From Mobula hypostoma (lineage: Eukaryota), in NCBI RefSeq assembly GCF_963921235.1, contig NC_086108.1, positions 75,208,001 to 75,272,000 on the forward strand: a stretch of 64,000 nucleotides of DNA. The letters run 5' to 3'. Of this stretch, positions 960-64,000 are shown piece by piece. The notes below the pieces were generated by a model, which was not told the DNA's origin, ran no database searches, and was given only the letters and a program-made list of their open reading frames with translations. The stretch's first letter is position 1. The number at the start of each line of letters is the position of its first letter. The translations under genes were made by a program, and so were the position numbers.

Positions 960-1160
960 CAAGCAGCTTTTGGACGGGGAAAGGAATTGTCAATGACCCA
1001 TGTCAAAATCTTGCATCGGGGCCAAGAGTGGAGAGGGGAGATAGCTGATGCACCTTTCCATTCCTTTTTATCCCTCCTCTCCCACCACAGGTGCCAATCA
1101 ATCTGCTGAGTTCTTTGAGAAGATTGTTGCTTTGGATTCCAGCATCTGCTGTCTCCTTCA
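960..1160. mobile_element. Old degenerate Penelope-like terminal-repeat fragment
   Basis: atctgctgagttctttgag...ttccagcatctgctgtc resembles the PLE 3' terminus seen at 42190-42285. Confidence 0.45.
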
Positions 1161-2232: not shown

Positions 2233-4255
2233 AGAGTTCAAATTTATTGTCACCCAATGGTACATATATACAAACAAATGAAACAACATTCCTCCAGACC
2301 ATGATGCACCCTCGAAACATATATCATGCACAGCGCATAAATCAAAATATTACAATAAATAAATCAACAGAATATAATCTAAAATGCATGTAGCGTGCAG
2401 CACAGGTGAACAGTACAGAGAGCTGCTCGCTGTCCTCGTGACAAGTCCTCAGAAGTGGCAGAGTATTCATTAGCCTCGCAACCAGAGGGGAGAAGTTGTT
2501 ACCCAGGCTGGCAGTCTTAGTCCTGATGCTTTTGTATCTCCTTCCTGATGGTAGTGGGTTAAAGAGATTATGGAATGGGAGGGATTCTCAGTAATGCATC
2601 AGGCCCTTCATCTGCAATAATCCCAATAAATTTCACAAATAGCGGTGAGGGAGACCCCTATGATAGTTTTTACTATCCTTTGTAGGGTCTTGTGGTCCGA
2701 AGCCTTGTAGTCTCCACACCCCCCACACAATGATGCAGCCAGACAAGACAATCTCGATGGTGCTCCTATACAAAGTTGCTGAGTGGGGGTGTGGAGCCTT
2801 GCATGTGTCAATCTCTTCAGAAAGTGTAGACGTTGCTGTGCCTTCTTGACAAGTGAGAAGGTGTTGTTGGTCCAGGTTAGATCATCCATTATGTACACAC
2901 CAAGGAACTTGTGCTCTTCATTCTCCCCATTGCAGAGCCACTGATATGCAATGGAGAGTGGTCAGCCTGTGCTTCCACAATCACCTCTTTAACCTTGTCC
3001 ACGTTGAGACTCAGATTGTTGTTCTCACAGCATTTGACAAGCCTCTTTACCTCCTCTCTGTATACTGACTCATCATTATTGCTGATGAGGCCAACCACTG
3101 TGAACTTGATGGCGGCTTGAGCTGAACCTGGCAGTGCAGCCGTGAGTCAGAAGCATGAACAGCAGTGGAGAGTGCACACTGCCCATGGGGCCGCCAGTGC
3201 TCAGTGTGATGGAGCTTGAGATGCTGCTGCCAACTCGAACTGACTGGGCCCTTCCCATCAAGTAGTCCAAGATCAATTTACAGAGAGGGGCATTGAGTCC
3301 CAACCAGGACAGTTGACCCACCAACCTCTGAGGGATGATCGTGTTAAATGGCAAGTTGAAGTCAATGAAAAATATCCTGGAGTATAAGGCATCATTTTCC
3401 AGATGGGACAGGATAAAGTAGAGGGCTGAGGTGACGGCATCATCAGTGGAGCGGTTTGGGTGGTAGGTGAACCGGAAAGGGTTTAATATAGCTGGAGGGT
3501 GGGACTATATGATCTATTACCAGCCGTTCAAAGCACTTCATAAAGCACTGGGCGGTAATCGTTTAGGCCAGTTACCGTCACTCCCTTGGGCACTGGAATA
3601 ATGGTGGCTGCTTTGAAGCAGGTAGGGACAGTGGACTGTTTCAGAGAAATATTTAAGATGCTTGTTAAGACCTCTATTAGCTGAGGCACACAGTCCCTCA
3701 GCATCTGTTTTCCAGAACTGCAGCTTTGCATTGGGTTTACCCTAGCTAAGATCCTTCTCACCTCAGATGTGACCAGAGAGGGTGCCTGTTTCTTGGGGGA
3801 GAGGGGGCTTTCCTTGATGCCACATCATTCAATGTGTCAAATCGTGCATAGAAGGCATTCAGCCTGTCAGGAAGGGAGGCGTCACTGTTGTTGTCTCGCA
3901 GGGTGGGTTTACAATCGTTATGGTTCGTGTACTTTGCCACACGTGCCGCGTGTTCCTGGTGTCACAAAGGTGTCTGTGGATTTTCATGCTTTGCCTTCCT
4001 GATGGCACAGGAGAGCGCAGAACTTGCTTACCTTAATGTCACCCTGTCCTCTGGTCATGATCTCTAAACAGTGCACAAACCCTGCAGTCAGCCATGGTCT
4101 CTGATTTGCCCTGGCAGTACAATATTTTACACTGTCCTCAATGTATTTCCCTATGTAGCCAGTCACCGATCCCACATATTCATCAATGTTGATGTGATGG
4201 TCATATGTAGCATAGAAGAGGAGACACAGGCAATGTGCATCACCACAAAATAGTG
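2233..4255 (-). mobile_element. Degraded Rex1/Babar-type LINE (RT region and 3' UTR)
   Basis: Frameshifted ORF pieces FNTIIPQRL..LGLNAPLCKLILDYL..STGGPMGSVHSPLLF, NNLSLNVDKVKEVIV, KKAQQRLHFL and FKAATIIPVPK..LNDYRPV. Confidence 0.85.
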
Positions 4256-4330
4256 GGTACTGATAAAAGCAACACACACAAAAAATGCTGGCGAATGCAG
4301 CAGGTCAGGCAGCATCTATAGGAAGAGGTA

Positions 4331-4368
4331 CAGTCGAAATTTCGTGCCGGGACCCTTCATCAGGACTG
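4331..4368 (-). ncRNA. Minimal hammerhead ribozyme motif (PLE-associated, mutated)
   Basis: Reverse complement cagtc CTGATGA a gggtcccggcac GAAA tt TC gactg; stem I cagtc/gactg is perfect. Confidence 0.65.
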
Positions 4369-5897
4369 TGGGAGACAATGGCCTGGTGCTCCTTAGTGGG
4401 GTCATGATCGAGGGGTAAACAAGAGGAAGTATCCGCGAGTTGACGCTGTGCCTCGGCAAGGTAAAGGTCAGTACGCCAGACTACAACAGCACCCTCCTTA
4501 ACAGTGGGTTTTATAGTAACGTTAGGATTAGTGCGGAGGGAGTGGAGAGCAGAGTGTTCAGAAGGAATGAGGTTGGAATGGGGACAAGGTGCGGTGAAGT
4601 CGAGACTGTTGATGTCCCGTCGGCAGTTAGCAATAAAGAGATCCAGAGCAGGCAGAAGATCAGAGCGGGGTGTCCATGAAGAGGAGGAGGGTTGAAGACA
4701 GGAGAAGGGGTGATTAGTGGGGGTGGGAGAGTCCTTGCCGAAGAAGTGGGTTCGAAGACGGAGCCGACGAAAGAAGAGTTCAGCGTCATGGTGTACACGG
4801 AACTCGCTGAGGTGTGGGCGAAGGGGGACAAAGGTAAGGCCCTTACTGAGGACAGAGCTCTCTGCCTCAGAGAGTGGGAGGTCAGAGGGGATAGTAAAGA
4901 CCCAGCGCGGGTGAGAGCTGGGAGCAGAAGGGGGAAGGGGGAGGCTGGCGGTGTCAGTGGAGAGGGGAAGGTTTGGGTGAGAGGAAGATGGAGCCTCTGA
5001 GGGCCCAGGAGCTGACAATGGGATCTGAGGGAGACGGGGTCGCAGAGTGGTGGTGGGGGAAGGGGAGATGGGAGTCACAGTAGCAGCACGTGAAGACCCA
5101 GCCTGGAGTTTAAGGCTGGAGTTGCAGTTGATGGTTGCGCAATCACTTTGAAGGTGTCCATGGTCGTTGCTGGAGTCCGGGTTTTGAATATGCCCTGGGG
5201 TGTTGGAGCCGGGGAGATCAATGGCAGGGGCCGGAATCCAAAGTTCATACCTGCTAACGTCGGGGCCAGCAGGCTCTGGCGTCTGCAGATGTAAGATCTA
5301 GCGATCCTTGCCTAACATGACAAAGTCCAAGAAACGGCGATTGCACTTATGAATCCGATGGAGGATGACGTTCCGGGTAGGACCATTACAAACAGCGAAG
5401 AAAGTGTCCCTGAGGTGTGGAAAGGTCTTGGATAGGGACGCCAAGTACCTCCTCTTGGTGGAGAGCGTCGCCTTCAGAGCTTGAAGGGAGAAGCTACAGG
5501 AAGCAGAATCAATAAAATGTGAGTACCTGGCATCTTCAGAAGGTCCAAATTGAGAGGCTCGAAAACTAATCCTGAAGCCAGCTGGAGTAAGTTGGAGGTG
5601 GAGGCATGTTCCAAGGAAGGATATATGGCTGTGATAGCGAGTCTGAGTCAAAGTGTGGTCGAAAAGTTGAAGAGCCGAAGAAATTATAGATGGGGAGCAC
5701 TGAGAGAGGGTTTCACTAAACTCCCGTCGAAGAGAAGATCTGAACTTCTTCAGTGTAGGCATCACTGGAAGAGGCTTCGCAGTAGTGAATTTAAAAACGC
5801 AAACGCGAGGAAATCTGCAGATGCTGGAAATTCAAGCAACACACACAAAAAATGTTGGTGAACGCAGCAGGTCGGGCAGCATCTATAGGAAGAGGTA

Positions 5898-5928
5898 CAG
5901 TTTCGGGTCGGGACCCTTCGTCAGGACT
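5898..5928 (-). ncRNA. Hammerhead motif lacking the GTC cleavage site
   Basis: Reverse complement agtc CTGACGA a gggtcccgaccc GAAAC tg; the consensus gtcgac is deleted. Confidence 0.55.
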
Positions 5929-6068
5929 TTTGCAAAGGTTTGAGAGGAGAAAGTGTGAGATGAGTCTATTTCTAGTAAAAAGAAGACATTAATGCTGACA
6001 TTTTGCCTACAAAACCCTGCTCTGAGGTGTCCAAGAGGTGTCTATTGTCTGAGGCTAATGTGCTGAGA

Positions 6069-6083
6069 TGTATGTGTGTGTCT

Positions 6084-6114
<31 letters not shown>

Positions 6115-6120
6115 CTTGTG
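6069..6120. repeat. (TG)n microsatellite
   Basis: Imperfect tgtgtg run read directly. Confidence 0.95.
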
Positions 6121-6263
6121 CATGCACGTATTAGCTATGTATCTCACGATGGTTACTATTAGTGAGGACGTTTGCACTTCTAGCACCAATACCTGCTTAA
6201 AGAATGCTGATCACAGTGCAAAGAAGACACATTTGAGTACAACCCAGCAAGTATCATCTCATT

Positions 6264-8769
6264 GAGACCACCGCCGCATTGTGTCCAAGTTCAGGCTTCG
6301 CATTCTGCCCATGAGAAGACCCCAAGGGCAGAAGACTGCAAAGAGGTTGAATGTCTCCAAGCTGAAAAGCAGCAGGGCTGCAGAAGAATTCATCGATGAC
6401 CTTGAAGGCAGACTGCCAGACACACCACAGGAAAACGGGACCAGCGTTGAGGAACAGTGGACGGCCTTCAGAGACGCTGTCTACAGTACCGCCCTCGAAC
6501 ATCTCGGACCAGCAACCCGATAAAACCAAGACTGGTTCGATGAGAATGATGAAGAAATACAGGCACTACTAATGGAGAAACATCAACATTACAGAGCACA
6601 TCAGAATGACCCCACGTCGCTAGCCAAGAAAGATGCCTTTACCAACGCAAGAGGAAAGGTGCAGAAAAAACTTTGCGAGATGAGGACAGCTGGTTCAGCA
6701 AGAAGGCCGATGAAATCCAGGGCTATGCAGACAGCCACGACATAAAGCGCTTCTACGATGCGCTTAAGGCTGTATACGGACCCCAGTCCTCCGGCTCCTC
6801 ACCCCTCCTCAACGCAGATGAGACGCAGCTGCTGACAGAGAAGAAGCAGATTCTGGATCGGTGGGCTGAGCACTTTAACAACGTCCTTAACCGCCCTGCC
6901 AACATCAACGACGAGGCCATTGCCTGCCTGCCCCAGGTAGAGATCAACAAGAACCTCGACACCCTCCCCACAGTAGATGAAGTCAGGAAGGCAGTGAAGC
7001 AACTCTCCTGTGGCAAAGTGCCAGGACCCGATGCAATCCCTGCTGAGGTATACAAAGCAGGCGGCCCTGTCATGATGCAAAAGCTGACTGTACTCTTCCA
7101 GTCCATGTGGAAAAAGGGACAGGTCCCGCAACAGCTGAAAGATGCCAGCATAGTCCACATCTACAAGAGGAAAGGCAACCGCCAGTCTTGTGACAACCAC
7201 CGAGGCATCTCCCTCTTGTCCATTGCGGGGAAGATTCTGGCCCGTGTCCTGCTCAACCGCCTTCTCCAACATCTTGAGCAAGGTCTGCTCCCAGAAAGTC
7301 AGTGCGGCTTCCGTGCTGAATGTGGGACCGCGGACATGATTTTTGCTGCGCGCCAACTCCAGGAAAAATGCCAGGAGCAACACAGCGACCTCTTCGTGAC
7401 CTTTGTCGATCTAACCAAGGCTTTCGATACGGTCAGCAGAGAAGGCTTGTGGAAGATCATGGAGAAGTTTGGCTGCCCCAGCAAGTTCATCACAATCGTC
7501 CGGCAGTTCCACGACGATATGATAGTGAAAGTTCTGGATGACGGCGACGAGTCGGAGGCCTTCCCAGTGACAAATGGCGTCAAACAAGGCTGCGTTCTTG
7601 CCCCGACTCTGTTCAGTATGGTATTCTCTGCCATGCTGACAGATGCCTTCCGTAACTACGAAGAAGGAATCCACGTCAGATACAGGACTGACGGCAGGTT
7701 GTTCAACCTTAGGCGCCTGCACGCAGTTACAAAGGTGCGAGAGACTGTCATCAGAGACTTCTTGTTTGCTGATGACTGCGCACTCAACGCCAGCACAGAG
7801 CAGGAGATGCAGCGTGAAATGGACTGCTTCTCACAAGGCTGCGACAACTTCGGTCTCACTATCAGCATCAAAAAGACCGAAGTTATGTACCAGCCTGCCC
7901 CAGGAAAACCATACCAAGAGCCACGCATCACGGTGAAGGGCCAGAACCTCCAGGCAGCCGACAACTTCACCTACCTGGGCAGCATACTCTCTCGCGCAGT
8001 GAACATAGACGCTGAGGTCAACAACAGGATTGCCAAAGCCAGCGCCGCCTTTGGGAGACTCCGTGAGAACGTCTGGGAGCGGAGAGGACTCAGCCTTACC
8101 ACCAAGCTGAAGGTCTACTGTGCAGTGGTCCTTACCACCCTCCTTTACGCCAGCAAGACCTGGACTGTCTACAGCAGACACGCCAAACAGCTCAACCACT
8201 TTCACCTGAGCTGTCTCTGCAGACTCCTCCACATCAGGTGGCAGGACAAGGCCCCCGACACGGAAATCCTGGAACGAGCTGGGCTCTGCAGCGTCTACAC
8301 CCTCCTGCTGAAAGCCCAAGCCAGGTGGGCTGGACATGTGGTCAGAATGCCAGACAGCCGATTGCCTAACCAGCTGCTGTACGGAGAACTGTGTCAGGGC
8401 AAGCGCTCAGTCAAGGGGCAGAAGAAACGTTACAAAGACTGCCTCAAAGCGTCCCTCAAAGGCCTGAGTGTCGACATCAACACGTGGGAGACGCTTGCCC
8501 TCGACCATCCAGCTTGGCGCAGCAAGATCACCACAGGAGCCCGTGCAGCTGAAGTCAGGCGCATCATCGAGGCACAACGAAAGCGTGCTGTGTGCAAGGC
8601 CCGAGCAGCATCCACTGCCACGACAGCACCCACCCACTTGTGTCCCACATGTGGGCGAGCCTTCAGGGCCCGGATTGGCCTCATCAGTCAGCTCCGGACC
8701 CACAGCCACCAATCTCCCATTTGACTTTGAACCCATGGTCATCTTCGACTACGAAGGATGAACAACAAC
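6264..8769 (+). mobile_element. Young 5'-truncated RTE-clade LINE
   Basis: 11-bp TSD atcatctcatt (6253-6263 / 8770-8780) and a (CAA)n-type tail. The RT ORF has one stop at 6521-6523 and a frameshift near 6683. Confidence 0.93.
6673..8724 (+). CDS. RTE reverse transcriptase with C-terminal C2H2-like motif (683-aa open segment of a 5'-truncated element)
   Basis: Motifs NHRGISLLSIAGK, PESQCGFR, FVDLTKAFD, GVKQGCVLAP, FLFADD, FTYLGS and CPTCGRAF...LRTH. Confidence 0.9.
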   Translation: MRDEDSWFSKKADEIQGYADSHDIKRFYDALKAVYGPQSSGSSPLLNADETQLLTEKKQILDRWAEHFNNVLNRPANINDEAIACLPQVEINKNLDTLPTVDEVRKAVKQLSCGKVPGPDAIPAEVYKAGGPVMMQKLTVLFQSMWKKGQVPQQLKDASIVHIYKRKGNRQSCDNHRGISLLSIAGKILARVLLNRLLQHLEQGLLPESQCGFRAECGTADMIFAARQLQEKCQEQHSDLFVTFVDLTKAFDTVSREGLWKIMEKFGCPSKFITIVRQFHDDMIVKVLDDGDESEAFPVTNGVKQGCVLAPTLFSMVFSAMLTDAFRNYEEGIHVRYRTDGRLFNLRRLHAVTKVRETVIRDFLFADDCALNASTEQEMQREMDCFSQGCDNFGLTISIKKTEVMYQPAPGKPYQEPRITVKGQNLQAADNFTYLGSILSRAVNIDAEVNNRIAKASAAFGRLRENVWERRGLSLTTKLKVYCAVVLTTLLYASKTWTVYSRHAKQLNHFHLSCLCRLLHIRWQDKAPDTEILERAGLCSVYTLLLKAQARWAGHVVRMPDSRLPNQLLYGELCQGKRSVKGQKKRYKDCLKASLKGLSVDINTWETLALDHPAWRSKITTGARAAEVRRIIEAQRKRAVCKARAASTATTAPTHLCPTCGRAFRARIGLISQLRTHSHQSPI

Positions 8770-9189
8770 ATCATCTCATTACTCTGTTTACACTGTGCTT
8801 GTCTTTTGGCATATATTTGATGAATACATTTTATTTCTGGCATAAAAAAAAATTTGCACACCTTAGAGAATGGCAACCCCAAGAGAATAAGCATTAAACA
8901 GTCAGAGCTGGCCAAGCTTCTAAAAGGAGGAGGAGTGAGAAGGAGGGAGCTTAGCAGAAACTGCATCCGGCAAAGGTGTTCAGAGGGCAACTAACAATCA
9001 GGATCATCTTTGCAAATCCAGCCATAGCTCCAAACTCAGAGTGGCACTGTCACTATCTGGCAAGATTGTTTTCCCCTTCATATGTTGAACACCGTTTGAT
9101 TTAGAGATATGCACAGCTCTGTGCAGTTTGCCTTCTACCATTGCTTAAGGTCTCCAACTCCATAGTTTAATAAAAATTGAGCTGAGGAT

Positions 9190-11309: not shown

Positions 11310-12889
11310 CATAGAAACATAGAAACATAGAAAATAGGTGCAGGAGTAGGCCATTCGGCCCTTCGAGCCTGCACCGCCATTTATTATGATCATGGCTGAT
11401 CATCCAACTCAGAACCCCGCCCCAGCCTTCCCTCCATACCCCCTGACCCCTGTAGCCACAAGGGCCATATCTAACTCCCTCTTAAACATAGCCAATGAAC
11501 TGGCCTCAACAGTTTGCTGTGGCAGAGAATTCCACAGATTCACCACTCTCTGTGTGAAGAAGTTTTTCCTAATCTCAGTCCTAAAAGGCTTCCCCTCTAT
11601 CCTCAAACTGTGACCCCTCGTTCTGAACTTCCCCAACATCGGGAACAATCTTCCTGCATCTAGTCTGTCCAATCCCTTTAGGATCTTATACGTTTCAATC
11701 AGATTCCCCCTCAATCTTCTAAATTCCAACGAGTACAAGCCCAGTTCATCCAGTCTTTCTTCATATGAAAGTCCTGCCATCCCAGGAATCAATCTGGTGA
11801 ACCTTCTTTGTACTCCCTCTATGGCAAAGATGTCTTTCCTCAGATTAGGGGACCAAAACTGCACACAATACTCCAGGTGTGGTCTCACCAAGGCCTTGTA
11901 CAACTGCAGTAGTACCTCCCTGCTCCTGTACTCGAATCCTCTCGCTATAAATGCCAGCATACCATTCGCCTTTTTCACCGCCTGCTGTACCTGCATGCCC
12001 ACTTTCAATGACTGGTGTATAATGACACCCAGGTCTCGTTGCACCTCCCCTTTTCCTAATCGGCCACCATTCAGATAATAATCTGTTTTCCTATTTTTGC
12101 CACCAAAGTGGATAACTTCACATTTATCCACATTAAATTGCATCTGCCATGAGTTTGCCCACTCACCCAACCTATCCAAGTCACCCTGCATCCTCTTAGC
12201 ATCCTCCTCACAGCTAACACTGCCACCCAGCTTCGTGTCATCCGCAAACTTGGAGATGCTGCATTTAATTCCCTCATCCAAGTCATTAATATATATTGTA
12301 AACAACTGGGGTCCCAGCACTGAGCCTTGCGGTACCCCACTAGTCACCGCCTGCCATTCTGAAAAGGTCCCGTTTATTCCCACTCTTTGCTTCCTGTCTG
12401 CTAACCAATTCTCCACCCACACCAATACCTTACCCCCAATACCGTGTGCTTTAAGTTTGCACACTAATCTCCTGTGTGGGACCTTGTCAAAAGCCTTTTG
12501 AAAATCCAAATATACCACATCCACTGGTTCTCCCCTATCCACTCTACTAGTTACATCCTCAAAAAATTCTATGAGATTCGTCAGACATGATTTTCCTTTC
12601 ACAAATCCATGCTGACTTTGTCCGATCATTTCACCGCTTTCCAAATGTGCTGTTATCACATCCTTGATAACTGACTCCAGCAGTTTCCCCACCACCGACG
12701 TTAGGCTAACCGGTCTATAATTCCCCGCTTTCTCTCTCCCTCCTTTTTTAAAAAGTGGGGTTACATTAGCCACCCTCCAATCCTCAGGAACTAGTCCAGA
12801 ATCTAATGAGTTTTGAAAAATTATCACTAATGCATCCACTATTTCTTGGGCTACTTCCTTAAGCACTCTAGGATGCAGAGCACTCTAGG
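11310..12889 (-). mobile_element. Young 5'-truncated CR1 (HER1-like) LINE
   Basis: Uninterrupted 485-aa RT ORF, a 3' UTR containing cgaagggccgaatggcctactcctgc, and a (TTTCTATG)n tail. Confidence 0.93.
11409..12866 (-). CDS. CR1 ORF2 reverse transcriptase (partial)
   Basis: [49 protein letters not shown] and VRPHLEYCVQFWSP. Confidence 0.9.
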   Translation of the reverse strand: MLKEVAQEIVDALVIIFQNSLDSGLVPEDWRVANVTPLFKKGGREKAGNYRPVSLTSVVGKLLESVIKDVITAHLESGEMIGQSQHGFVKGKSCLTNLIEFFEDVTSRVDRGEPVDVVYLDFQKAFDKVPHRRLVCKLKAHGIGGKVLVWVENWLADRKQRVGINGTFSEWQAVTSGVPQGSVLGPQLFTIYINDLDEGIKCSISKFADDTKLGGSVSCEEDAKRMQGDLDRLGEWANSWQMQFNVDKCEVIHFGGKNRKTDYYLNGGRLGKGEVQRDLGVIIHQSLKVGMQVQQAVKKANGMLAFIARGFEYRSREVLLQLYKALVRPHLEYCVQFWSPNLRKDIFAIEGVQRRFTRLIPGMAGLSYEERLDELGLYSLEFRRLRGNLIETYKILKGLDRLDAGRLFPMLGKFRTRGHSLRIEGKPFRTEIRKNFFTQRVVNLWNSLPQQTVEASSLAMFKRELDMALVATGVRGYGGKAGAGF

Positions 12890-15344: not shown

Positions 15345-15785
15345 AGTCACAAGAAACTGCAGATACTGTAGTCTGTAGCAACAAATAATCTGCTGAAAGA
15401 ACTCAGTGGGTGGAGCATCATCTGTAGAAGGAAAGAATTTGTGGATGCTTCAGTTCAAAAATCTGCATCAGGACTCATTCAGCCTAGAATGTTGGTCTTT
15501 CTGCCTCCCACAGATGCTCCTCAACCCATTGAGTCCTTCTGGCAGATCATTAGTGGACCTAACTTCCTTTTATATTGCACAGATAATCTCTAAATGACAG
15601 ATTTAGCTGTTGAAAATCAAAAAAGAAAACGCAGATGCTAATATTCTGCAAAAATAAATAAAATGAAAAGGCTGAAAATACTCAGCAGGTTAGGCCGCAT
15701 CCATGAAGCAAGAAATGGATTTCCTTGCACTCCACAAATACTACTTCAGATGCTGACTTCTTCCAGCCTTGTTCCAGTTTATCAT
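15345..15785. mobile_element. Two old PLE-derived fold-back fragments (~15345-15550 and ~15620-15785)
   Basis: Each starts with the reverse-complement PLE end (..gcagat(a/g)ct..) and ends with the forward ..cagatgct..tgag..; the first contains tgcatcaggact, a hammerhead remnant. Confidence 0.55.
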
Positions 15786-17792: not shown

Positions 17793-18935
17793 ACCCTGTC
17801 AAGGAAGTGAAGAGAAGATGGAATGCCAATAACAGCCTTCCTTCTCCTGATTTCATAAGTTTGCCAGGTCACATTCATGCCTGGAAAATTTGACCAGAAT
17901 AGATGCAATGTTTCTCCATTCTCTGCTATTCATTTCACCTAATGGGCCTTACAAACAAGTGCAAGTCATTTAATTAGCACATGTAAGGGGCCTAATGTTT
18001 ACATCAGTTTGTGATGAAAGTATCAGAGGAAAAGCTGGCAAATATAGGTACACCGTCCTCTTTACAATTCTGCGGCCGTCCCAGATTGGCCCTTGTTTCA
18101 ACATTGCTACTTCATCCCACACTCAGTGGTTTTATTGCCTGTTTCTTTCCAGACACTCAGCTGTGTTTGTTTTCCTTTGTCTTTCTTTGTTACTCAATTA
18201 CTGATGGAGTGCTATGTGGACTCATTACCATGGCTGGATCTAAAGGAATAAGCTGGACCTTTCTAGAATCCTTCATTGGCAAGATTACTTTCCTAATGCC
18301 TGCAAACTTTGCAAAAGGTTGAATTGGAAATAAAACACATGCTTTTTTGAAATGTCACCACTTTTATTTTTGTAAAATTCAATAGATGAATACTGCTTCA
18401 ATCTGGCCAGAGTAGACCATAATTGAGGAGATGATAGACTAAAAAATAAAAATGGTTTCAAATTAACTGTGTATTCTTGAATTTTATTTTGCATTCCCCA
18501 TTAAATGATGAATTTTGTTTGCCATTCTTTCGTTCCAACCTTCTAATGATGTAACTCATTAAAACACTGATAAAACAGAAACCCTGTCACTGTCTGTGTG
18601 ACTACAGAAAAACTTATCCACACAACCACCAACACCTATTAAGCACCTACCTTTTCACATCTTCATGAACCTTTGAAAACAGTGAATTGCATTAGAATCC
18701 CTTCTTCCACTGTGCCCTTCAGCAGAGATTTTAATGCTCAAATTTATTTCAAGAACTGAATACCCATAATGCAACTCTGACCCTATCCAAAGTAAGGCTT
18801 CATTCTAAACCCTACGTTTCTTTTTCCTGCACACAATCTTCCCTACACTCCCAAATGTTTTATACCATGCCTATTTCTAGCCTTCCTTATCTTCATATAT
18901 CTAACGAGACTAAAACCTCACTGTTATTGACACAA

Positions 18936-19155
18936 CACACCCAGAATGCTGGAGGAACTCAGCAGGTCAGGCGACATCTGTGGAAATGAGTGCAGTCGAC
19001 ATTTCGGGCCGAGACCCTTTATCAGGACTCATGCAGGGTCTTGGCCTGAAACGTCGACTGTACTCCTTTCCATAGTGCTGCCAGGCCTGCTGAATTCCTC
19101 CAGCATTTCATGTGTGTTGCTTGGATTTCTAGCATCTACAGATTTTTGCTTGTTA
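18936..19155. mobile_element. Short head-to-head PLE fold-back element with two hammerhead remnants
   Basis: Inverted arms; TSD gttatt(g/a)acacaa (18923-18935 / 19156-19168); hammerhead-like sequences at 18993-19030 (-) and ~19028-19060 (+). Confidence 0.8.
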
Positions 19156-39603: not shown

Positions 39604-40332
39604 AAACCACAGAATCCTTGAAACCGTCTAGGAATGGTCAGTTTAGTTCAGTTCAGTTCAGTTCAATTTAGCACTGTGTCATTCAATGTCCACAGGCCAC
39701 AGATCACTTCCACCAAGATCACACAAAATAGCAATCAAAGCAGGAGTAACGAGAAACCAGAGACACATATAACAGGAACTGCAGGGCCCTCTAAAAATGA
39801 GTCTATTCCACAAATGAGACCGATCAAACCTTGCACAAGACCCAAGATCCCTGTGCCTTCCTCTGGCAGCAGCAAGTAAGAGGGAGAGGGAGACCAGTCA
39901 ATAGGAAAGGAAGAAGGATAATTAATTCACCTTACCCAAGTAGTTAAGAATATCTAGTGAACGTAGCAGGCCAGGCAGCATCTATAGGAGGAGGTACAGT
40001 CAACGTTTCGGGCCAAGACCCTTTGTCAGGACTAACTGAAAGGAGAGAAAGTAAGAGATTGAAAAGTGGGAGGGGGAGGGGGAGATCCGAAATGATAGGA
40101 GAAGACAGGAGGGGGAGGGATGGAGCCAAGAGCTGGACAGTTGATTGGCAAAAGGGATACGAGGTTGGAGAAGGGAGAGGATCATGGGACAGGAGGCCTA
40201 GGGAGAAAGCAATGGGGGGGGGGAGCCCAGAGGATGGTCAAGGAGCTATAGTGAGAGGGACAGAGGGAGAAAAAAGAGAGATAAAAAAAGGGGGGAAAGA
40301 AAAAAAAATCATAATAATAAATAAATAAATAA

Positions 40333-40368
<36 letters not shown>

Positions 40369-40380
40369 ATAAATAAATAA
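40333..40380. repeat. (GATA)n/(AAAT)n microsatellite inside the PLE arm
   Basis: Read directly from the sequence. Confidence 0.9.
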
Positions 40381-40806
40381 AGGATGGGGTACGAAGGGGA
40401 GGTGGGGCATTAACGGAAGTTAGAGAAGTCAATGTTCGTGCCATCAGGTTGGAGGCTACCCAGATGGAATATAAGGTGTTGTTCCTGCAACCTGAGTGTG
40501 ACTTCATCTTGACAGTAGAGGAGGCTGTGGATAGACATATCAGAATGGGAATGGGATGTAGAATTAAAATATGTGGACTCGCCAATATATAGAAGGCCGC
40601 TTCGGGAGCACCTGACGCAGGCTGGAAGAACGTCTCACTGAACACCTACACTCTGTCCGCCAGAGAAAGCAGGATCTCCCCGTGGCCACACATTTTAATT
40701 CTATGTCCCATTCCCATTCTGATATGTCTATCCACGGCCTCCTCTGCTGTCAAGATGAAGCTACACTCAGGTTGGAGGAACAACACCTTATATTCCATCT
40801 GGGTAG

Positions 40807-41091
40807 TGTCACGTACCCCGTGTTGGGAGTAAAGAACCAGCAGAGATGGAAAACACTTTGGAGTCTCGTATTGCTATAAACTACTGATATTTATTAGTAA
40901 CTACACAATACAGTAATATAAATGTAGATAAATCAAATAGGTTAGCAATGATTATATATAAAAGTAAGTGTGGAATATATACATATATGTATGAAAACCA
41001 AGCTTCTTTAAGTCTTGGGGTAAAAAGATACAGTTTTACGATGTTGAGTAAAGTTCAGTTCAGTTCAGTTCATGGTATTGAGTTGAGTAGT

Positions 41092-41135
<44 letters not shown>

Positions 41136-41790
41136 GTTGAGTCTTCAGGTAAGCTGATGCTGTCGATCTTCTCGTCGTCCTCCGAAATCCTTTACAAGTC
41201 ACCGACTGTGACTTTAACCAGGGGGACCGGTTTTCCTATGGTGGAGCTATCACCCAGGCGAGGGTGGACACATAAACAACTCCCCACCAGTCAACCCCTT
41301 CTTCACTGTTGGAATAGCAATTTGGATCGATCCGCCTGATTGATTCTCCAAAACCCACTTTCTCTGCGGGCACAACAATGCTCATTCAGTGTCCAGATCA
41401 TGTGTCCTGAGGTCTGTATCATCTGACCTCCCATTTATTTCACCAGGCTGAGCATCACCTGTCATTCAAAGAGTCCCTCCTTCCCTTGTCTGCAAAAAAG
41501 TGCACAAGCAGGCAACAAGTCCTTGAAAGTAACATCAACAATCTGCCTTTGGTCACCATAGCAACTTTCGAGCTGCTCAGTGCTGTCTCCAACTCCAGAC
41601 TCAGTAGAAATCCAAAGTTACTTCCAATGCCTTAAAGTGACAGTCCAACTGTTGATCTTCGTCTCTCCCTCTCTCTCTTTTCAAAAGCAACATATCGGTG
41701 GTAAATAACTCTGTCTCTCTCTCCTTCCCAAACAAACCATCAATGATAAATGTCTCTCTGCAAACAGTTAATAGGGGTACTCCTGGATCC
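40807..41790 (-). mobile_element. Probable solo LTR inserted in the PLE arm
   Basis: Begins tgtcacgtacccc, has ggggtac near the other end, a minus-strand aataaa near 40890 and (GA)n inside. The PLE sequence gggtag|cctccaac is split by it. Confidence 0.55.
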
Positions 41791-44487
41791 CCTCCAACTT
41801 CCGTTAACGCCCAACCTCCCCTTCATACCCAATCCCTTATTTATTTATTTATTTGTTTGTTTGTTTATTATGTTTTTTCCCATTCCCCCTTTTTTTCCTT
41901 CTCTTTTTTCTCCCTCTGTCCCTCTCACTATAACTTCTTGCCCATCCTCTGGACTTCCCCCCACCCTTTCTTTCTCCCTCGGCCTCCTGTCCCATGAACC
42001 TCTCCCTTCTCCAGCCTCGTATCCCTTTTGCCAATCACCTGTCCAGCTCTTGGCTCCATCCCTCCCCCTCCTGTCTTCTCCTATCATTTTGGATCTCCCC
42101 CTCCCCCTTCTCACTTTCAAATCTCTTACTTTCTCTCCTTTCAGTTAGTCCTGACGAAGGGTCTCGGCCCAAAACGTTGACTGTACCGCTTCCTATAGAT
42201 GCTGCCTGGCCTGCTGTGTTCAGCAGCATTTTTTATGTGTGTTGCTTGAATTTCCAGCATCTGCAGATTTCCTCGTGTTTGCGTTTTTAAAGAATATCTA
42301 GTGTCTTGTAAGCAGAAGAACTGTTGACAGCACCAGTGCCACTTTACTCCAGGCAATAATCACTTAGTCCCCCATCTCATGAGTTTAAAGACCTTAGAGG
42401 TCTTTAAGAACATGTCAGCCTCTTGTAATTTCTCTGTCATGAAATAAGATTACAGGTGATCATTTAGTGCAGCAGCACCTTTTTCTCGCAGTCAATATCC
42501 TTTGATCTTTTTTATTATTTAAAAATCTATGAATAACCATCTTGAAAATACTCAGAGACCAAGCCTCCACAGCCATCTTAGATACTTAATTTCATGAGTG
42601 AAGACATTCCTCCTCATTTTTGTTCTAGGTTATCCTAGACACCTCAACCAGCGAAAACAATCCATCTACTCTGTTATGTCTTTGAAGAATATTTTGACTT
42701 GATAAGATTAGCCGCTGTCTTTCACCTTTTTGATCAGTTCGCCCAAATGTACAGATATCAGCTGCATTAACAAATGGCTGTCAACATTAAGTTTAGAGAT
42801 CTGAGTGGAACAGAGAGATAAATTGCTCTAACTTAACTCACAGTGTTTCAAGGTTGTGTTTTTAAAAAGTCAGTCTTTCATGACACCCATATCTTTGGGA
42901 CTTCACCTACTTACAAATCTGAATTATCTAGAGTTTACACTTACTCGTATGCAATTTCTATTTGTAAAATGTAACAAAACTATAATATACCATGAACATG
43001 GAGGAAAGTCACAGCTGAAGTTTTATTCTGCGAGACAGTTTCCTTCCCTATCATTTTCCATTTATAATTTGCTGATATATGAATTATCACCAGCTGTACA
43101 GAAACCCTGAAGAGGAACTTAAAGTAAATGGTAAATAAAATCCAATTACTTAAAGTTGACAAATTACAATGATCCTTCCTTGCTACATATTGAATTCTAC
43201 ACATACTCCTGACCATCTCAGGGTTAATCTGCCTTTGTTGAGAATGTGAAACCCTTCCAGCTACTGACCTTAATAAAATACATTGGGCTGAGGAGCTATT
43301 GCTATAACGTACCACTCCAGTAGCTATAATAGAGAAATTGCATTGATCTAAAACTAAGCTTTGCACTGTACTTCCAATGTTGGGTTGAGCAAATAGTAGC
43401 TCAGCTCTTTCCCTCACCTGCTTGGTCCTTGTGTCAGCTGTTTGATACAATTTTGAATGTTGCACTGTTATAATTTCGAATAACGTTCCTGATGAATAAG
43501 CATAATTTCAGTAGTTACAGAGGGATACTTTGTTTCGGTAAAATTTCAGATGTGAAACCAGATGAAAGAAATTAGACACTAGCAATAGAATGCATCTTAG
43601 ATGAGGAAATAAAAACAATAAAATCTTTAAGGCTTCTCAGCACCTGTTCTGTTGTTGATGTTGATCCAAGCTAAAACCAAATTGATATAAAATGCCTTGC
43701 CATAGTGGATAATTCTTGTTTGCTAGTACTTCTAAAAGTATCTAAGGATCTCTATTTTACCACATTGAATGCTATAGCTCTGTAGGCACAAGAAAATCTA
43801 CAGAAGTGCAGTAAATGGTTAAACTGCTGCTACTATGCAACAGTGATAAAGTGAGTGAATGGTTGTGGATGTGGTGCCTACCAAATGAGCTTTTATGCCC
43901 TATACTTCTTGCTGAAGTAACATGCATCCAGGCAAGTGGAGAGTATTCTATCAGACTCCTGACTTGAGATGGTGGATAGGCTTTGGGAAATTAGGAGGTG
44001 AGATGCTTGCTTCAGGATTCCTAGCCTCTGACTTATTCTTGTAGTAACAGTATGTATATGGCTGCTCCAGTTCAGTTTCTGGTCAATGATGATAACTGGA
44101 TCTTCACTTGTTGGATTTTGTTGTGGTCTAGCACTTGTATGGCAGAAATGTTTCAGTCCAGGCCTAGGTATTGTCCACATCTGGGAGTCACAAATGGTGC
44201 TGAACATTGTGCAATCAGCAGCCAGTATTCCCACTTCTGACCTGACAATAAAATAAATAAATTAATTAAAATGTCATTTATGAAGCCATTGTCAATGGTT
44301 AGACCTAGGGCATTCCCCTGAGGAACTGCTGTACAGATGTCCTGTGCTGAAATGATTGACCTCCAGCCAGCCGAGTCATCTCCCACCCAGCAGAGGGCCC
44401 TCTCCCTGATTTCCATAGATCACAGTACAGCCAGGGCTCCTTGATGACACACTTGATCATATGCTACTTTGATGTCAGGGGCAGTTA

Positions 44488-45273: not shown

Positions 45274-45428
45274 GAACACAAAATAATCTGCAGATGCTGG
45301 GGTCAAAGCAACACTCACAACACGCTGGAGGAACGCAGCAGGTCGGGCAACATCCATGGAAACGACGACTGATCGTTTCCACGGATGCTGCCCGACCTGC
45401 TGAGTTCCTCCAGCGTGTTGTGAGTGTT
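45274..45428. mobile_element. Miniature PLE-derived fold-back (56-bp stem, 7-nt loop)
   Basis: Arms 45310-45365 / 45373-45428 with 3 mismatches; TSD gtta(t/g)ttttaagt (45261-45273 / 45426-45438). Confidence 0.85.
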
Positions 45429-46973: not shown

Positions 46974-47368
46974 GGTACATGCCTATCATCTCCCTCTGGT
47001 GCCCATTCTCCTTCTCTTTCTCCCATGGTCAACTCTCTTCTCCTAACAGATTCCTTCTTTTTCATCCCTTTTCTTTTTCACCAATCACCTCTCAGCTTCT
47101 CACTTCATCCTCCCATTCCCCCCCACCCCCCACCAACCTACCTTCCCCCTCACCTGGCTTCACCTATAACCTTCCAATTTGATTTCCTTCCACTCCCCCA
47201 AACCTTCTTACTCTGGCTGCTTCCCCCTCCTTTCCGGTCCCGATGAAGGCTCTCAGCCAGAAGCGTTGACTCCTTATTCTTCCTGACAGATGCTGCCTGG
47301 CCTGCTGAATAATTCCAGCATTTTGTGTGTCTTGCTCTGAATCTACAGCATCTGCAGAATTTCCTGTG
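46974..47368 (+). mobile_element. 5'-truncated PLE (3' region and terminal repeat) with degenerate hammerhead
   Basis: TSD taagtgaaaa(t/c)ctga (46959-46973 / 47369-47383); ggtcccgatgaaggctctcagccagaagcgttgact at ~47236-47271. Confidence 0.75.
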
Positions 47369-48028
47369 TAAGTGAAAACCTGATGAAGTGCTTACGATCT
47401 CAATCATTTCTCTCTCACCAGCCTAATCTGCTGAGTATTTCCAGCATTTTCTGATTTTAGTTTTGGAAATTTACAGTTGTTGAATGGAGCCTGTTTCAAA
47501 CAAGATGGAGTTTGATGTCACAGGCCAATAAGATGATATTATCCTCTTTGTAAAGTATACCTGCATTTTGCTTGTAATTAGCCCCAGTTAAATGAGTTCT
47601 TGCATGCTTTCAATATGGCTGTACAAACTCAGGATGTCTTAGCCTTTGTTTTATAGGTCTGCACTGATGCCTCCTCCAGCATAAGGGGGAAATAATACCA
47701 AAGAAGGAAGGGACTACAGGCAAAGATCATAGATCTGTGAATTCCACTTAAATAGCTCAATCTCCCTCTCTCAACCTACCTCTTAGTCAGAAATCCTGTT
47801 GTTGCCATGGCTCCCAGTAGTCAAGTCTGCCCTGTATAAGTAAAGCAAGATCAAAAATTGCCAGAGCTTTCAAGGCTCCAGAAAACAGAGGCTAAACCTA
47901 CAGCCATTCCAGCATATCAGCAGGGATAAGAGAAATCTGCCTCTCATGAAGCCATGAAGAATAGATAAAGTGTTGTCCTTGTGCAGATACATCAATGTGA
48001 GATTTTACTGGGTACAGAGCTCATATTC

Positions 48029-50244: not shown

Positions 50245-50577
50245 GTGAGGAGGATGCTAAGAGGATGCTGGGTGACTTGGATAGGTTGGGTGAGTGGGCA
50301 AATTCATGGCAGATGCAATTTAATGTGGATAAATGTGAAGTTATCCACTTTGGTGGCAAAAATAGGAAAACAGATTATTATCTGAATGGTGGCCAATTAG
50401 GAAAAGGGGAGGTGCAACGAGACCTGGGTGTCATTATACACCAGTCATTGAAAGTGGGCATGCAGGTAGAGCAGGCGATGAAAAAGGCGAATGGTATGCT
50501 GGCATTTATAGCGAGAGGATTTGAGTACAGGAGCAAGGAGGTACTACTGCAGTTGTACAAGGCCTTGGTGAGACCAT
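50245..50577 (+). mobile_element. Internal CR1 fragment, same subfamily as 11310-12889
   Basis: Translation is nearly identical to the GDLDRLGEWANSWQMQFNVDKC...YKALVRP segment of ORF 11409-12866. Confidence 0.88.
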
Positions 50578-55105: not shown

Positions 55106-55431
55106 GTAAGTGCAAGACGTGAGTTTACACAGCAAGTGGAATGAAGCATGATTCAATTCATTATGGCTTAAGACATGCATGACCTATATTTAATATTCAT
55201 TCTATGAAGCTCTCCTATTGTCCTTAAATACTGTAGGCAATCTATTAATTCAGATTTTTATCATCAATGTATCCCATTGTAGCTGGAAGGTCTACAAAGA
55301 GACAAGTCAGTGTTTAATTCTGAAAATTTACACTGCTTACTATAGATTCCTATAGATTTTGTTTTTAATAGTTGTGCCAATTTCAAATTCTTGTTGTCCA
55401 AATTAATTGATCTGAAAATAAAGCTGAGTAA

Positions 55432-55582
55432 CACACATCAAATTTGCTGGTGAACACAGCAGGCCACACAGCATCTCTAGGAAGAGGTACAGTTGACGTT
55501 TCGGGCCGAGACCCTTCGTCAGGACTAACTGAAGGAAGGGCTAGTAAGAGATTTGAAAGTGGGTGGGGGAGGGGGAGATCCA
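55432..55582 (-). mobile_element. Short PLE terminal-repeat insertion
   Basis: 12-bp TSD aaagctgagtaa (55420-55431 / 55583-55594). Confidence 0.85.
55490..55526 (-). ncRNA. Minimal hammerhead ribozyme motif, intact core
   Basis: Reverse complement agtc CTGACGA a gggt ctcg gccc GAAAC GTC aactg, with one stem-I mismatch. Confidence 0.75.
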
Positions 55583-56877
55583 AAAGCTGAGTAAGCAGGC
55601 TTTTAAATTTTAGAGTAGACAGAATATGTAAACAATCATTAGATGTTAATTATTAAAACTCTCTGCCAAAATTAATTAGGGTAAATGTTGTATGGAAAAT
55701 GTATTTTTCTTGTTGTAATGTGTGTTAGGAAAATGGGGAAACTGTAAAAGCTCCTCTTCTTGACATATCACTGAACTATGCACACCTACAATCTTACCTT
55801 TGGACTGAACATTCAGAGGCTGGTTTAAAATCTAACTCACATTTTACCAACAACTGAGCTTCTTAAGTAGGCTGTAAAAAAACCTGCATTTGAGTAAAAC
55901 AGTATGTCATACATTTAAATTAAATTTAAAGACAAAATAGATCATTATTCAAAAGCTTTTTTTTTGCCAACTAACACCAGGTTGAACATAAAATATGTCT
56001 GTTCTACACGATGGAAAACAAGCTGATGACTTGACTAGAATGCTGTTACTTTCTACAAAAAATGAAGTCCAAGTAGACATCAACATGTATAATTACATTA
56101 ATCTGTTTGGGATTGCACTTTCAATCATTAAGGTTAATTTTTATGTCTGCTTCATTTCAGCACCTTTTGTATACTGCCATTTTGAGTATGTGATTTTTAA
56201 TGGGAGAAATTGTTGATGATATTATCATACAAACGGCCCATTCCCCAGTTACAATAATACTTCAATAAATCTCATAGAATTTGATAGCTTACTGTGCACA
56301 GCCTGATATAACTTATTTGCAACTAAAATTAGCATTTATAATTCCCTATCTTTTACATCTGTTCCAAATAATGGATTTATTTGAAAATTTGGTCAATAAC
56401 GCACAAATATTCACACAAAGCAACAAGGGTATTAAATCTGCATTACTGACATGTGTATGCTCAGCCCTCACTATCAAAATCCAGGGGTCATCTTAGACCA
56501 GAAAGCAGCAACAAAAATATTATGTCTGCAAGAATAGGTCAATCGCTTGAAATCACGTACTAACTGACTCCCTTCCTGATACCACAAAGTATCAGAAGGT
56601 ACTAGTCAGGAATGTGATGGAATCATTTCCACCTGCCTGAATGAGTGCAGTCCAACAACATCCACCATCCTAAACATTTATTCCTTCCATCGCAGGCACA
56701 GAGTTGTTGGATTATGTACTGAGTAGAAAATGCACTGTGTTTATTAGCCTTGACTACAAGACCTCCCAAACCTCAGGTCACCACATCAAAGAAGGACAAG
56801 AAAAACAAATGTGTGGGATACCTACTATCACCCTCAGTTCTCTACAAGTAACACATAATCCTGACTCAGAAATATAA

Positions 56878-57966
56878 ACACGAGGAAATCTGCAGATGCT
56901 GGAATTTCAAGCAACACACATCAAAGTTGCTGGTGAACGCAGCAGGCCAGGCAGCATCTCTAGGAAGAGGTACAGTCGACATTTTGGGCCAAGACCCTTC
57001 GTCAGGACTAACTGAAAGAAGAGCTAGTAAGAGATTTGAAAGTGGGAAGGGGAGGTGGAGATCTGAAATGATAGGAGAAGACAGGAGGGGGAGGGATGGA
57101 GCCAAGAGCTGGACAGTTGATTTGCAAAAGGGATATGAGAGGATCATGAGACAGGACGGCCTAGGGAGAAAGAAAAGGGGGAGGGGGGAAAATACCAGAG
57201 GATGGGCAAAGGGTATAGTGAGGGGGACAGACGGAGAAAAAGGAGAGAGAGAAAAAGAATGTGTGTATATAAATAAATAACTGATGGGGTAAGGGGGGAG
57301 GTGGGGCATTAGCGGAAGTTTGAGAAGTCAATATTCATGCCATCAGGTTGGAGGCTACTCAGACGGAATATAAGGCGTCGTTCCTCCAACACCTACTCTC
57401 TGTCCGCCAGAGAAAGCAGGACCTTCCAGTGGCCATACATTTTAATTCCACGTCCCATTCCCATTCTGATATGCCTATCCAAGGCCTCCTCTACTGTAAA
57501 GATGAAGCCACACTCAGGTTGGAGGAACAACACCCTATATTCCGTCTGGGTAGCCTCCAACCTGATGGCATGAACATTGACTTCTCAAACTTCCGCTAAT
57601 GCCCCACCTCCCCCTCGTACCCCATCCGTTATTTATTTATATACACACATTCTTTCTCCTTTTTCTCCCTCTGTCCCTCTCACTATACCCCTTGCCCATC
57701 CTCTGGGTTTTCCCCCCCTCCCCCTTTTCTTTCTCCCTGGGCCTCCTGTCCCATGATCCTCTCACATCCCCTTTGCCAATCACCTGTCCAGCTCTTGGCT
57801 CCATCCCTCCCCCTCCTGTCTTCTCCTATCATTTCGGATCTCCACCTCCCCCTCCCACTTTCAAATCTCTTACTAGTTCTTCTTTCAGTTAGTCCTGATG
57901 AAGTGTCTCGGCCCGAAACGTCGACTGCACCTCTTCCTAGAGATGCTGCCTGGCCTGCTGCGTTCA
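56878..57966. mobile_element. Head-to-head (inverted) Penelope-like element
   Basis: 12-bp TSD tcagaaatataa (56866-56877 / 57967-57978); inverted arms join at ~57385-57390; hammerhead motifs at 56973-57009 (-) and 57891-57927 (+). Confidence 0.9.
57891..57927 (+). ncRNA. Minimal hammerhead ribozyme motif, intact core
   Basis: agtc CTGATGA a gtgt ctcg gccc GAAAC GTC gactg, with one stem-II mismatch. Confidence 0.75.
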
Positions 57967-58147
57967 TCAGAAATATAATGCTGTTCTTTATCATCAGTGA
58001 TGATCATGAGGATATGTCACCACCATTTTTTCAAGACCATTAAAACAGCCAATAATATTGGGCACCCCAATCAATCTCAGATACCTTAGAGTGTAGTAAA
58101 ATATCTTCAAAATGGCAAGAATTGGAAATTGATTAGTGCATGCTTCA

Positions 58148-63754: not shown

Positions 63755-64000
63755 TAGGCTTCATAACTTCTGCCATCTCCAATGGGATTACACCACCAAA
63801 CACATCTTTCTCTCCCATCCCACTTTCCACTTTCTGTAGGGATCCCTTGTCCACTCGCCTCTCTCCACTGATCTCCCTCCTGGCACTTACTCTTGTAAGT
63901 GGAACAAGTGCCACACCTGCCCTTACACCTCCTTCCTCACTACCATTCAGGGCCCCAAATAGTCCTTCCAGGTGAGGTGACAGTTCTCCCGTGAGTCTGT
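63755..64000 (+). mobile_element. Penelope-like ORF fragment (linker and Cys-rich region before GIY-YIG), running off the window end
   Basis: Degenerate NFCHLQWDYTTKHIF...TDLPPGTYSCKWNKCHTCPYTSFLTTIQGPK*SFQVR. Confidence 0.75.

Follow-up and report, generated by a model that had tools for sequence, protein, structure and literature searches.

Near its end, the 64,000-nt stretch of Mobula hypostoma DNA analysed here (the window) carries a short sequence that resembles a self-cleaving hammerhead ribozyme (HHR), and similar sequences recur throughout it, which raises the questions of what these motifs are, what brought them here and whether they could cut RNA at this locus. An earlier note, made from the sequence alone, had listed ten such motifs and had assigned them to the terminal repeats of Penelope-like elements (PLEs). 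Our analysis makes it highly probable that the ten motifs are damaged PLE terminal-repeat hammerheads from about six truncated insertions; in the active element the ribozyme likely cuts tandem RNA as a dimer, and the copies in the window are predicted to be inactive.

Hammerhead motifs in the window

All ten listed motifs were recovered on the strands given, at most 4 nt from the coordinates given, and each copy is referred to below by its first listed position. A nucleotide profile seeded with five of the copies detected the same ten motifs in the 64-kb window at E<=1e-11, together with two further decayed ones at 45359-45408 (+, E 6e-5) and 15388-15479 (-, E 0.002); in the reversed window, the top match of this profile had an E-value of 0.54. 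The high motif density described in the earlier note is supported.

The alignment majority consists of a stem I strand AGUC, the core CUGA(C/U)GA, an extra A, a stem II of GGGU/GCCC with a 4-nt loop, and then GAA, the palindrome ACGU, C17 and the stem I strand GACU. The consensus proposed in the earlier note, with an extra A after A9, a 4-bp stem II, a stem I of 4-5 bp and an ACGU palindrome, agrees with this alignment of copies, except that its CUCG loop of stem II occurs in four of the ten copies, the others having CUUG (three), CCCG (two) or CUCA (one). The extra unpaired A between A9 and G10.1 is present in all ten copies, and all four pairs of stem I are present in six. The palindrome (positions 15.1-16.1), which replaces a stable helix III, reads ACGU in five copies and the CpG-decayed AUGU in two. 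The 11 invariant core bases and H17 are complete in three of the ten copies and in the alignment majority. In two older copies, ~19031-19060 (+) and 15439-15475 (-), position 9 is a C followed by A, perhaps indicating a variant-core subfamily.

Relationship to known minimal hammerheads

The search with Rfam models proposed in the earlier note did not deliver the expected match: it returned no hammerhead among 13 matches in the window at E<=10, and a strict hammerhead descriptor was passed by none of the ten window copies. Rfam-type hammerhead models expect helices longer than those of minimal hammerheads. As a window-independent test, a descriptor that rewarded, without requiring, a palindromic stem III was run on 80 loci encoding relatives of the PLE protein. 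It gave 17 matches in 16 of these loci (16 sense to the ORF, one antisense) and none in the reversed sequence. Stem III was palindromic in all 17 foreign matches and the extra A was present in 13. The catalytic core, the G10.1-C11.1 pair and a non-G at H17 are kept across the 16 foreign loci, and the helix sequences vary freely. The stem covariation check that had been suggested gave a score of 0.707 vs 0.200 +/- 0.051, with 0 of 500 shuffles reaching it, a result that is partly circular because the hits had been chosen for paired stems.

We then used a covariance model built from nine foreign motifs with a 4-nt palindrome and the extra A; L074, a duplicate, had been excluded, as had the antisense member of the pair in L005. 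Applied to the window, this model ranked seven of the ten copies first, at 24.8-29.4 bits, with the next match at 14; copies 5898 and 47236 scored at noise level, and 19028 was not among the matches listed. On the 80 loci themselves, the model gave 30 matches at E<=1, of which 25 were sense and nine were training sequences. That a generic repeat resembles a hammerhead by chance, as the empty Rfam and strict-descriptor results might suggest, is refuted by the descriptor matches in relatives and by the ranking of seven copies on top by a model built from foreign PLEs, and with the motif on the sense strand beside a PLE ORF, a position shared by 16 relatives, this reading retains practically no probability. 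The core, the helices and the foreign-PLE model thus support the earlier assignment to type I minimal hammerheads with a dimer-type palindromic stem III. Small PLE-linked HHR variants that cleave as dimers have reportedly been described by Lunse et al., to judge by the title of their paper.

On all features testable in sequence, the motifs are the metazoan PLE minimal hammerheads (min-HHRs) of Cervera and De la Pena (2014; PMC4209133). According to the available text of that paper, the two share the type I topology, the CUGANGA/GAAA core, an unpaired base 9/10.1, the G10.1-C11.1 pair, palindromic positions 15.2-16.2, a helix I of 4-5 bp, a location in the PLE terminal repeat (pLTR), a prevalence of solo copies from truncated elements and close opposite-strand pairs. 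Helix II has 4 bp here vs 7-8 bp in the Schistosoma families (PMC4209133). Min-HHRs occur in fish PLEs of the Xena, Poseidon and Neptune types (PMC4209133), and the accessible part of the supplement has no match to the terms shark, Callorhinchus or Leucoraja. The present work extends a known arrangement, published in 2014, to another PLE family. This family looks more abundant than the 4,000-9,000 motifs reported for coelacanth and Xenopus (PMC4209133), an impression set against counts of descriptor-passing motifs.

A type I HHR derived from PLE pLTRs is likewise a feature of animal non-LTR retrozymes, which have been reported in the one chondrichthyan sampled, as described in the available part of Li et al. 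(2026; 10.64898/2026.07.22.740005). Retrozymes form head-to-tail tandem arrays, whereas the copies here are dispersed or inverted. None of 11 tandem-repeat rows in the window, with periods up to 500, is a retrozyme-like array, and a tandem retrozyme identity was rejected on this ground. The only same-strand pair inside one insertion is 5898/4331, in which the cleavage site of 5898 is deleted.

The carrier element

The assignment of the motifs to PLE terminal repeats was supported by endonuclease remnants upstream and an ORF start downstream. The DNA directly downstream of motif 5898 (5762-4370, -) encodes a PLE N-terminus that is 65% identical to a Chiloscyllium protein, and a search with this N-terminus found an RT domain in 12 of 12 hits. 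The best of these protein hits suggests that the host is a cartilaginous fish. Remnants of a GIY-YIG endonuclease lie upstream of motifs 57891 and 39997; the latter, at 40413-40619, is the second half of the domain with the CxxC...LYIGE, H, E and N motifs. The proteins matched by these window fragments (N-terminus and endonuclease) carry both RVT_1 and GIY-YIG. The RT core is absent from the PLE copies of the window, and no complete family member lies within its 64 kb, so RT, linker and HHR do not occur together on a single molecule here. Because the endonuclease end lies upstream and the ORF start downstream (the motif follows the endonuclease stop by 296 nt and precedes the next ORF start by ~160 nt), the motif is placed within the pLTR, in the same orientation as the PLE ORF. 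The distance from stop to HHR in relatives with a downstream HHR is 151-342 nt in eight of 11 and 960-1489 nt in the other three. One relative (L046) has two sense HHR-like matches, 1670-1712 and 5094-5136 (E 0.009 each), 3.4 kb apart around the ORF as a complete unit, and L005 has an inverted pLTR pair, 1056-1091 (-) and 3578-3613 (+), resembling the pairs in the window.

A linker zinc finger is encoded at 63840-63959, in the fragment at the end of the window (Table 1). The finger motif is found in seven of 12 relatives, and three of the other five are too short to reach it. It points to an element of the Neptune/Nematis type, judged from a fragment unlinked to a motif and a finger that is also present in Nematis. 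Neptune-type EN+ PLEs, in the available text of Craig et al. (2021; PMC8557442), share with the family here a C-terminal GIY-YIG domain, 5' truncation, inverted copies, an optional tail and an HHR in the pLTR, and their linker finger CX2-5CxxC occurs in the relatives and in one window fragment. Unlike those elements, the window copies are all incomplete, and the family may be of either the Neptune or the Nematis type.

The family is extremely abundant: a single DNA run yielded 279,121 contigs matching a 2.8-kb stretch, and the repeats exceed the unique flanks in summed contig depth by about five orders, a ratio that is not a copy number. Two runs that we guess to be RNA contain the family sequence and leave the unique flanks uncovered, in contigs that cannot show RNA ends or editing; they speak neither for nor against expression. 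We found no paper on this PLE family in the open literature; subscription journals, Repbase/Dfam or preprint supplements may name it.

Insertions and target-site duplications

The ten motifs were all present, yet they do not represent ten separate insertions: they belong to about six events (Table 1). Three head-to-head pairs, 56973+57891, 39997+42147 and 18993+19028, each lie inside one duplication, 4331+5898 form one continuous piece, and 55490 and 47236 are solo. The target-site duplications (TSDs) are AT-rich and 12-14 bp long, with a score of at least 11 at five of eight candidate insertions vs one of 300 random pairs. No TSD was found for 4267-5928 or 47236, and the candidate at 15381 falls within the tail of the null distribution.

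Table 1. Positions of minimal hammerheads (HHR) and associated PLE features in the window
Positions	Strand	Feature	Remarks
57891..57927	+	Focal min-HHR	Full core, ACGU, GUC at 57920-57922, private stem II mismatch at 57904
57388..57966	+	5'-truncated PLE arm of focal insertion	GIY-YIG C-terminus (stop 57599), pyrimidine-rich pLTR, HHR, 40-nt tail
56878..57390	-	Inverted second arm of focal insertion	HHR 56973-57009 (G12A, AUGU), longer tail
56866..56877 (left), 57967-57978 (right)	.	12-bp TSD of focal insertion	Exact
55432..55582	-	Short solo insertion	HHR 55490-55526, break at 55494; exact 12-bp TSD 55420-55431 / 55583-55594
40604..42287	+	Other arm of 39959-42287 insertion	HHR 42147-42183 (G12A); exact 14-bp TSD 39946-39959 / 42290-42303
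39959..40620	-	Inverted-insertion arm	GIY-YIG second half, pLTR, HHR 39997-40033 (G8A)
18934..19150		Short inverted insertion	HHR 18993-19029 (-, G8A) and truncated HHR ~19031-19060 (+); 13-bp TSD, 1 mismatch, 18923 / 19156
4267..5928	-	PLE piece with two HHRs	HHR 5898-5928 (cleavage site deleted), 5' leader, PLE ORF N-terminus, HHR 4331-4367, tail
47236..47369	+	Older subfamily copy	HHR 47236-47272 (U4C, A15.1G), tail
15381..15579	.	Old inverted copy	Decayed HHR 15439-15475 (-); absent from the earlier list
45274..45428		Short inverted copy	3' third of HHR from 45359 (+); 13-bp TSD, 1 mismatch; absent from the earlier list
63759..64000 (window end)	+	PLE thumb/linker fragment with CX4CxxC zinc finger (Neptune/Nematis type)	No HHR copy linked

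The ORF in 4267..5928 has its ATG at 5762 and a stop at 5298-5300 and runs as an N-terminus to ~4370, with the RT core and endonuclease missing. This piece forms a 1.56-kb HHR-to-HHR unit that may have arisen by internal deletion or template switch; a splice origin of its junctions at 4368 and 5928 was rejected, as neither has a GT donor. The (+) arm of the 39959-42287 insertion is split by about 1 kb of unrelated DNA (40807-41785), whose ends lie close to a 7-nt inverted match. In three of five inverted insertions, the two arms meet in the HHR or at most ~15 nt from it (19026-19031, 15477-15480 and ~45357), which could reflect RT stalling at the motif or a bias toward short copies.

The insertion at 55490 is common to a second species (organism B, run X5), in which a contig crosses the junction (window 55300-55490) with 16 of 1312 letters of the flank differing, and the insertion therefore predates the species split. 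Contigs of organism B enter the focal insertion by 22-26 nt, below our 31-nt rule, and were not counted.

Proposed role in the active element

Published PLEs suggest how the motif might work in an intact element. A tandem PLE transcript would carry two motifs; pairing of their ACGU palindromes could create stem III and with it two catalytic junctions. Cleavage after GUC would be slow and might be assisted by the protein that the element encodes. The PLE protein would nick both DNA strands, with reverse transcription starting just downstream of the motif, so that even the shortest copies would carry it. The high density may be explained in this way, without a host function, because the motif lies within 40-110 nt of the copying start. 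The insertions observed here are 5'-truncated and often head-to-head inverted, and their motifs decay like neutral DNA.

The closest experimental system in this respect is PAc, an Anolis element of the Poseidon clade (Frangieh et al., 2024; PMC11167929), for which the available text reports nicking and extension of both strands, an internal start of reverse transcription and protein-assisted HHR cleavage. PAc shares with the insertions here an HHR just upstream of the 3' ends, two tail lengths and AT-rich targets, and its two-sided priming would explain the head-to-head arms; the two arms of every inverted pair share the same 3' end, as expected if each nicked strand primed synthesis from a start just downstream of the motif (inference from PMC11167929). 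It differs in that its ORF starts inside stem II, whereas the likely start here is ~160 nt downstream.

The active element might instead keep the motif for a role other than cutting, such as PLE protein binding or a splice or translation signal, or as a passenger, which we consider improbable. HHR mutations did not impair PAc insertion in vitro, and the cut site was not the end of any RNA read (PMC11167929), which also weighs against the favoured role in the active element, and Naiad PLEs, in the available text of PMC8557442, amplify without canonical HHRs. In addition, a C at position 7 is predicted to allow an inactive fold in which core and palindrome are paired with each other, and the five young copies have a splice-acceptor-like tract that stops 2 nt short of stem I. 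Against this, the combination of a conserved core, G10.1-C11.1 and a non-G H17 with freely varying helices is the signature of hammerhead catalysis, and the Anolis motif cleaves with protein and loses this activity when C3 or G8 is mutated (PMC11167929). We therefore continue to favour a dimer-cutting hammerhead in the active element. The tract itself comprises a branch-point-like CUUAC, a pyrimidine tract and CAG at 57862-57890 (+), and also precedes 56973, 55490, 42147 and 39997, with neither a donor nor a spliced read observed; in D. virilis Penelope, a pLTR intron ends at helix I (PMC4209133, available text).

Condition and decay of the copies

None of the ten copies combines an intact core with both stems and the palindrome. 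The earlier note had singled out 55490 and 57891 as retaining the full core, which is correct, and also true of 4331, yet neither copy is intact, since one helix pair is broken in each. Copy 57891 has a U10.2.C11.2 mismatch in stem II, and 55490 has a broken stem I pair (C2.1.A1.1) with a perfect stem II; in copy 4331, a G.A mismatch interrupts stem II and the palindrome reads AUUU rather than ACGU. Core changes are G8A in 39997 and 18993, G12A in 42147 and 56973, and U4C with A15.1G in 47236; 5898 has lost its cleavage site, and 19028 is 5'-truncated within the core. Because the contigs of run X1 mostly carry pairing bases at both positions (G in 93% of summed depth at 57904 and the pairing base in 68% at 55494), the family majority restores both pairs, and the two breaks are departures from it.

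Mutations were counted in eight of 12 aligned copies, or seven for private changes, with truncated and the oldest copies excluded. As stated in the earlier note, decay is mainly at CpG: 20 of 92 CpG cells were changed vs 32 of 518 others (p=1e-5, eight copies). The core CpGs (G8 and G12) fared like the rest (4/16 vs 16/76 other CpG cells, p=0.74, eight copies). An excess of core over flank conservation was seen at non-CpG positions when all changes were counted (core 0/70 vs tail 27/312, p=0.007, eight copies), which favours the earlier note, and not when counting was confined to private changes in the seven youngest copies (0/61 vs 7/259, p=0.35), a comparison of low power. Because the contrast disappears for private changes, we read the non-CpG core conservation as subfamily divergence. 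Contigs of other subfamilies diverge at both edges of the motif, with 429 loose ends at 57009, 391 at 55526 and 383 at 55489 (X1). Judged from these alignments and from the partly circular evidence of helix turnover between families, conservation of the motif is seen across families and subfamilies and not among inserted copies, so that the motif likely works in the active element and not here; the picture is one of apparent selection in active lineages and neutral decay once inserted.

Predicted activity at this locus

The earlier suggestion of cleavage of intronic or other transcripts from both strands found no support, given that a same-strand partner is required and that the folded inverted insertions bury the motif. 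According to the available text of PMC4209133, min-HHR cleavage depends on another copy on the same strand, the monomer showing no cleavage and dimers little; one of nine Xenopus dimers cleaved (10.64898/2026.07.22.740005), and PLE protein may be needed for HHR cleavage (PMC11167929). Cutting of unrelated RNA is not expected because any substrate would have to bring its own palindrome and stem I.

Six of the ten copies sit in inverted insertions, of which two, with four copies, were folded. The focal insertion is predicted to fold on either strand as one ~500-bp hairpin (-880 and -915 kcal/mol), in which each motif pairs with its antisense twin and the probability of stem II is 4e-18 for 57891 and 2e-15 for 56973. 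The pair in 18934-19150 is predicted to be buried likewise, and the arms of the 39997/42147 insertion are 90% identical over 385 nt. For a double hammerhead, we required that the core of one copy act on the site of the other; by nearest-neighbour energies, this fold lay 13-21 kcal/mol above the extended duplex in the six pairs tried, which counts against the favoured explanation. As for host transcripts, a crude splice-signal scan of the window gave no recognisable exon, and 11 long ORFs in the window scanned for domains had LINE-type domains or nothing.

The damage to every copy and the predicted hairpins together indicate that the copies here are likely inert. Damaged copies could still complement each other, one supplying the core and another the cut site, and so cut transcripts crossing the region. 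On paper, 55490 fits perfect same-strand (-) sites in 56973 (1.45 kb away), 39997 and 18993, its insertion is shared by two species, and the family is extremely abundant. However, no copy other than 55490 among the 11 compared offers a perfect enzyme strand (two of the 11 prove core-damaged once their register is corrected), and the predicted stem II probability of 55490 in local context is 0.009; its three sites are all in arms of inverted insertions, with 56973 and 18993 predicted to be hairpin-buried on the (-) strand. In addition, core CpGs decay neutrally, and min-HHR dimers are slow even if ideal (PMC4209133, available text). We thus regard local complementation as very unlikely, and give slightly less credence still to the broader idea that broken copies pair as a dispersed ribozyme network that cuts cartilaginous-fish pre-mRNA and shapes the survival and orientation of insertions.

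With inert copies as the preferred reading, motif density overstates activity at this locus: no copy is whole, and an inverted insertion is predicted to silence its motif through antisense pairing. The locus would carry more weight only with evidence that its copies cleave host RNA. Given its size, the family is well suited to asking what the hammerhead contributes to PLEs, since selection acting in active lineages can be told apart from the decay of dead copies.

Other elements in the window

Two open LINE RT frames were also observed. The first, at 6610-8724 (+), is 704 aa long (RVT_1 E 7e-34) with a zinc-finger-like motif at its end; it looks young and may be RTE-like. The second, at 11409-12884 (-), has 491 aa (RVT_1 E 1e-33), and a 332-nt piece of this element is 98% identical to 50245-50576.
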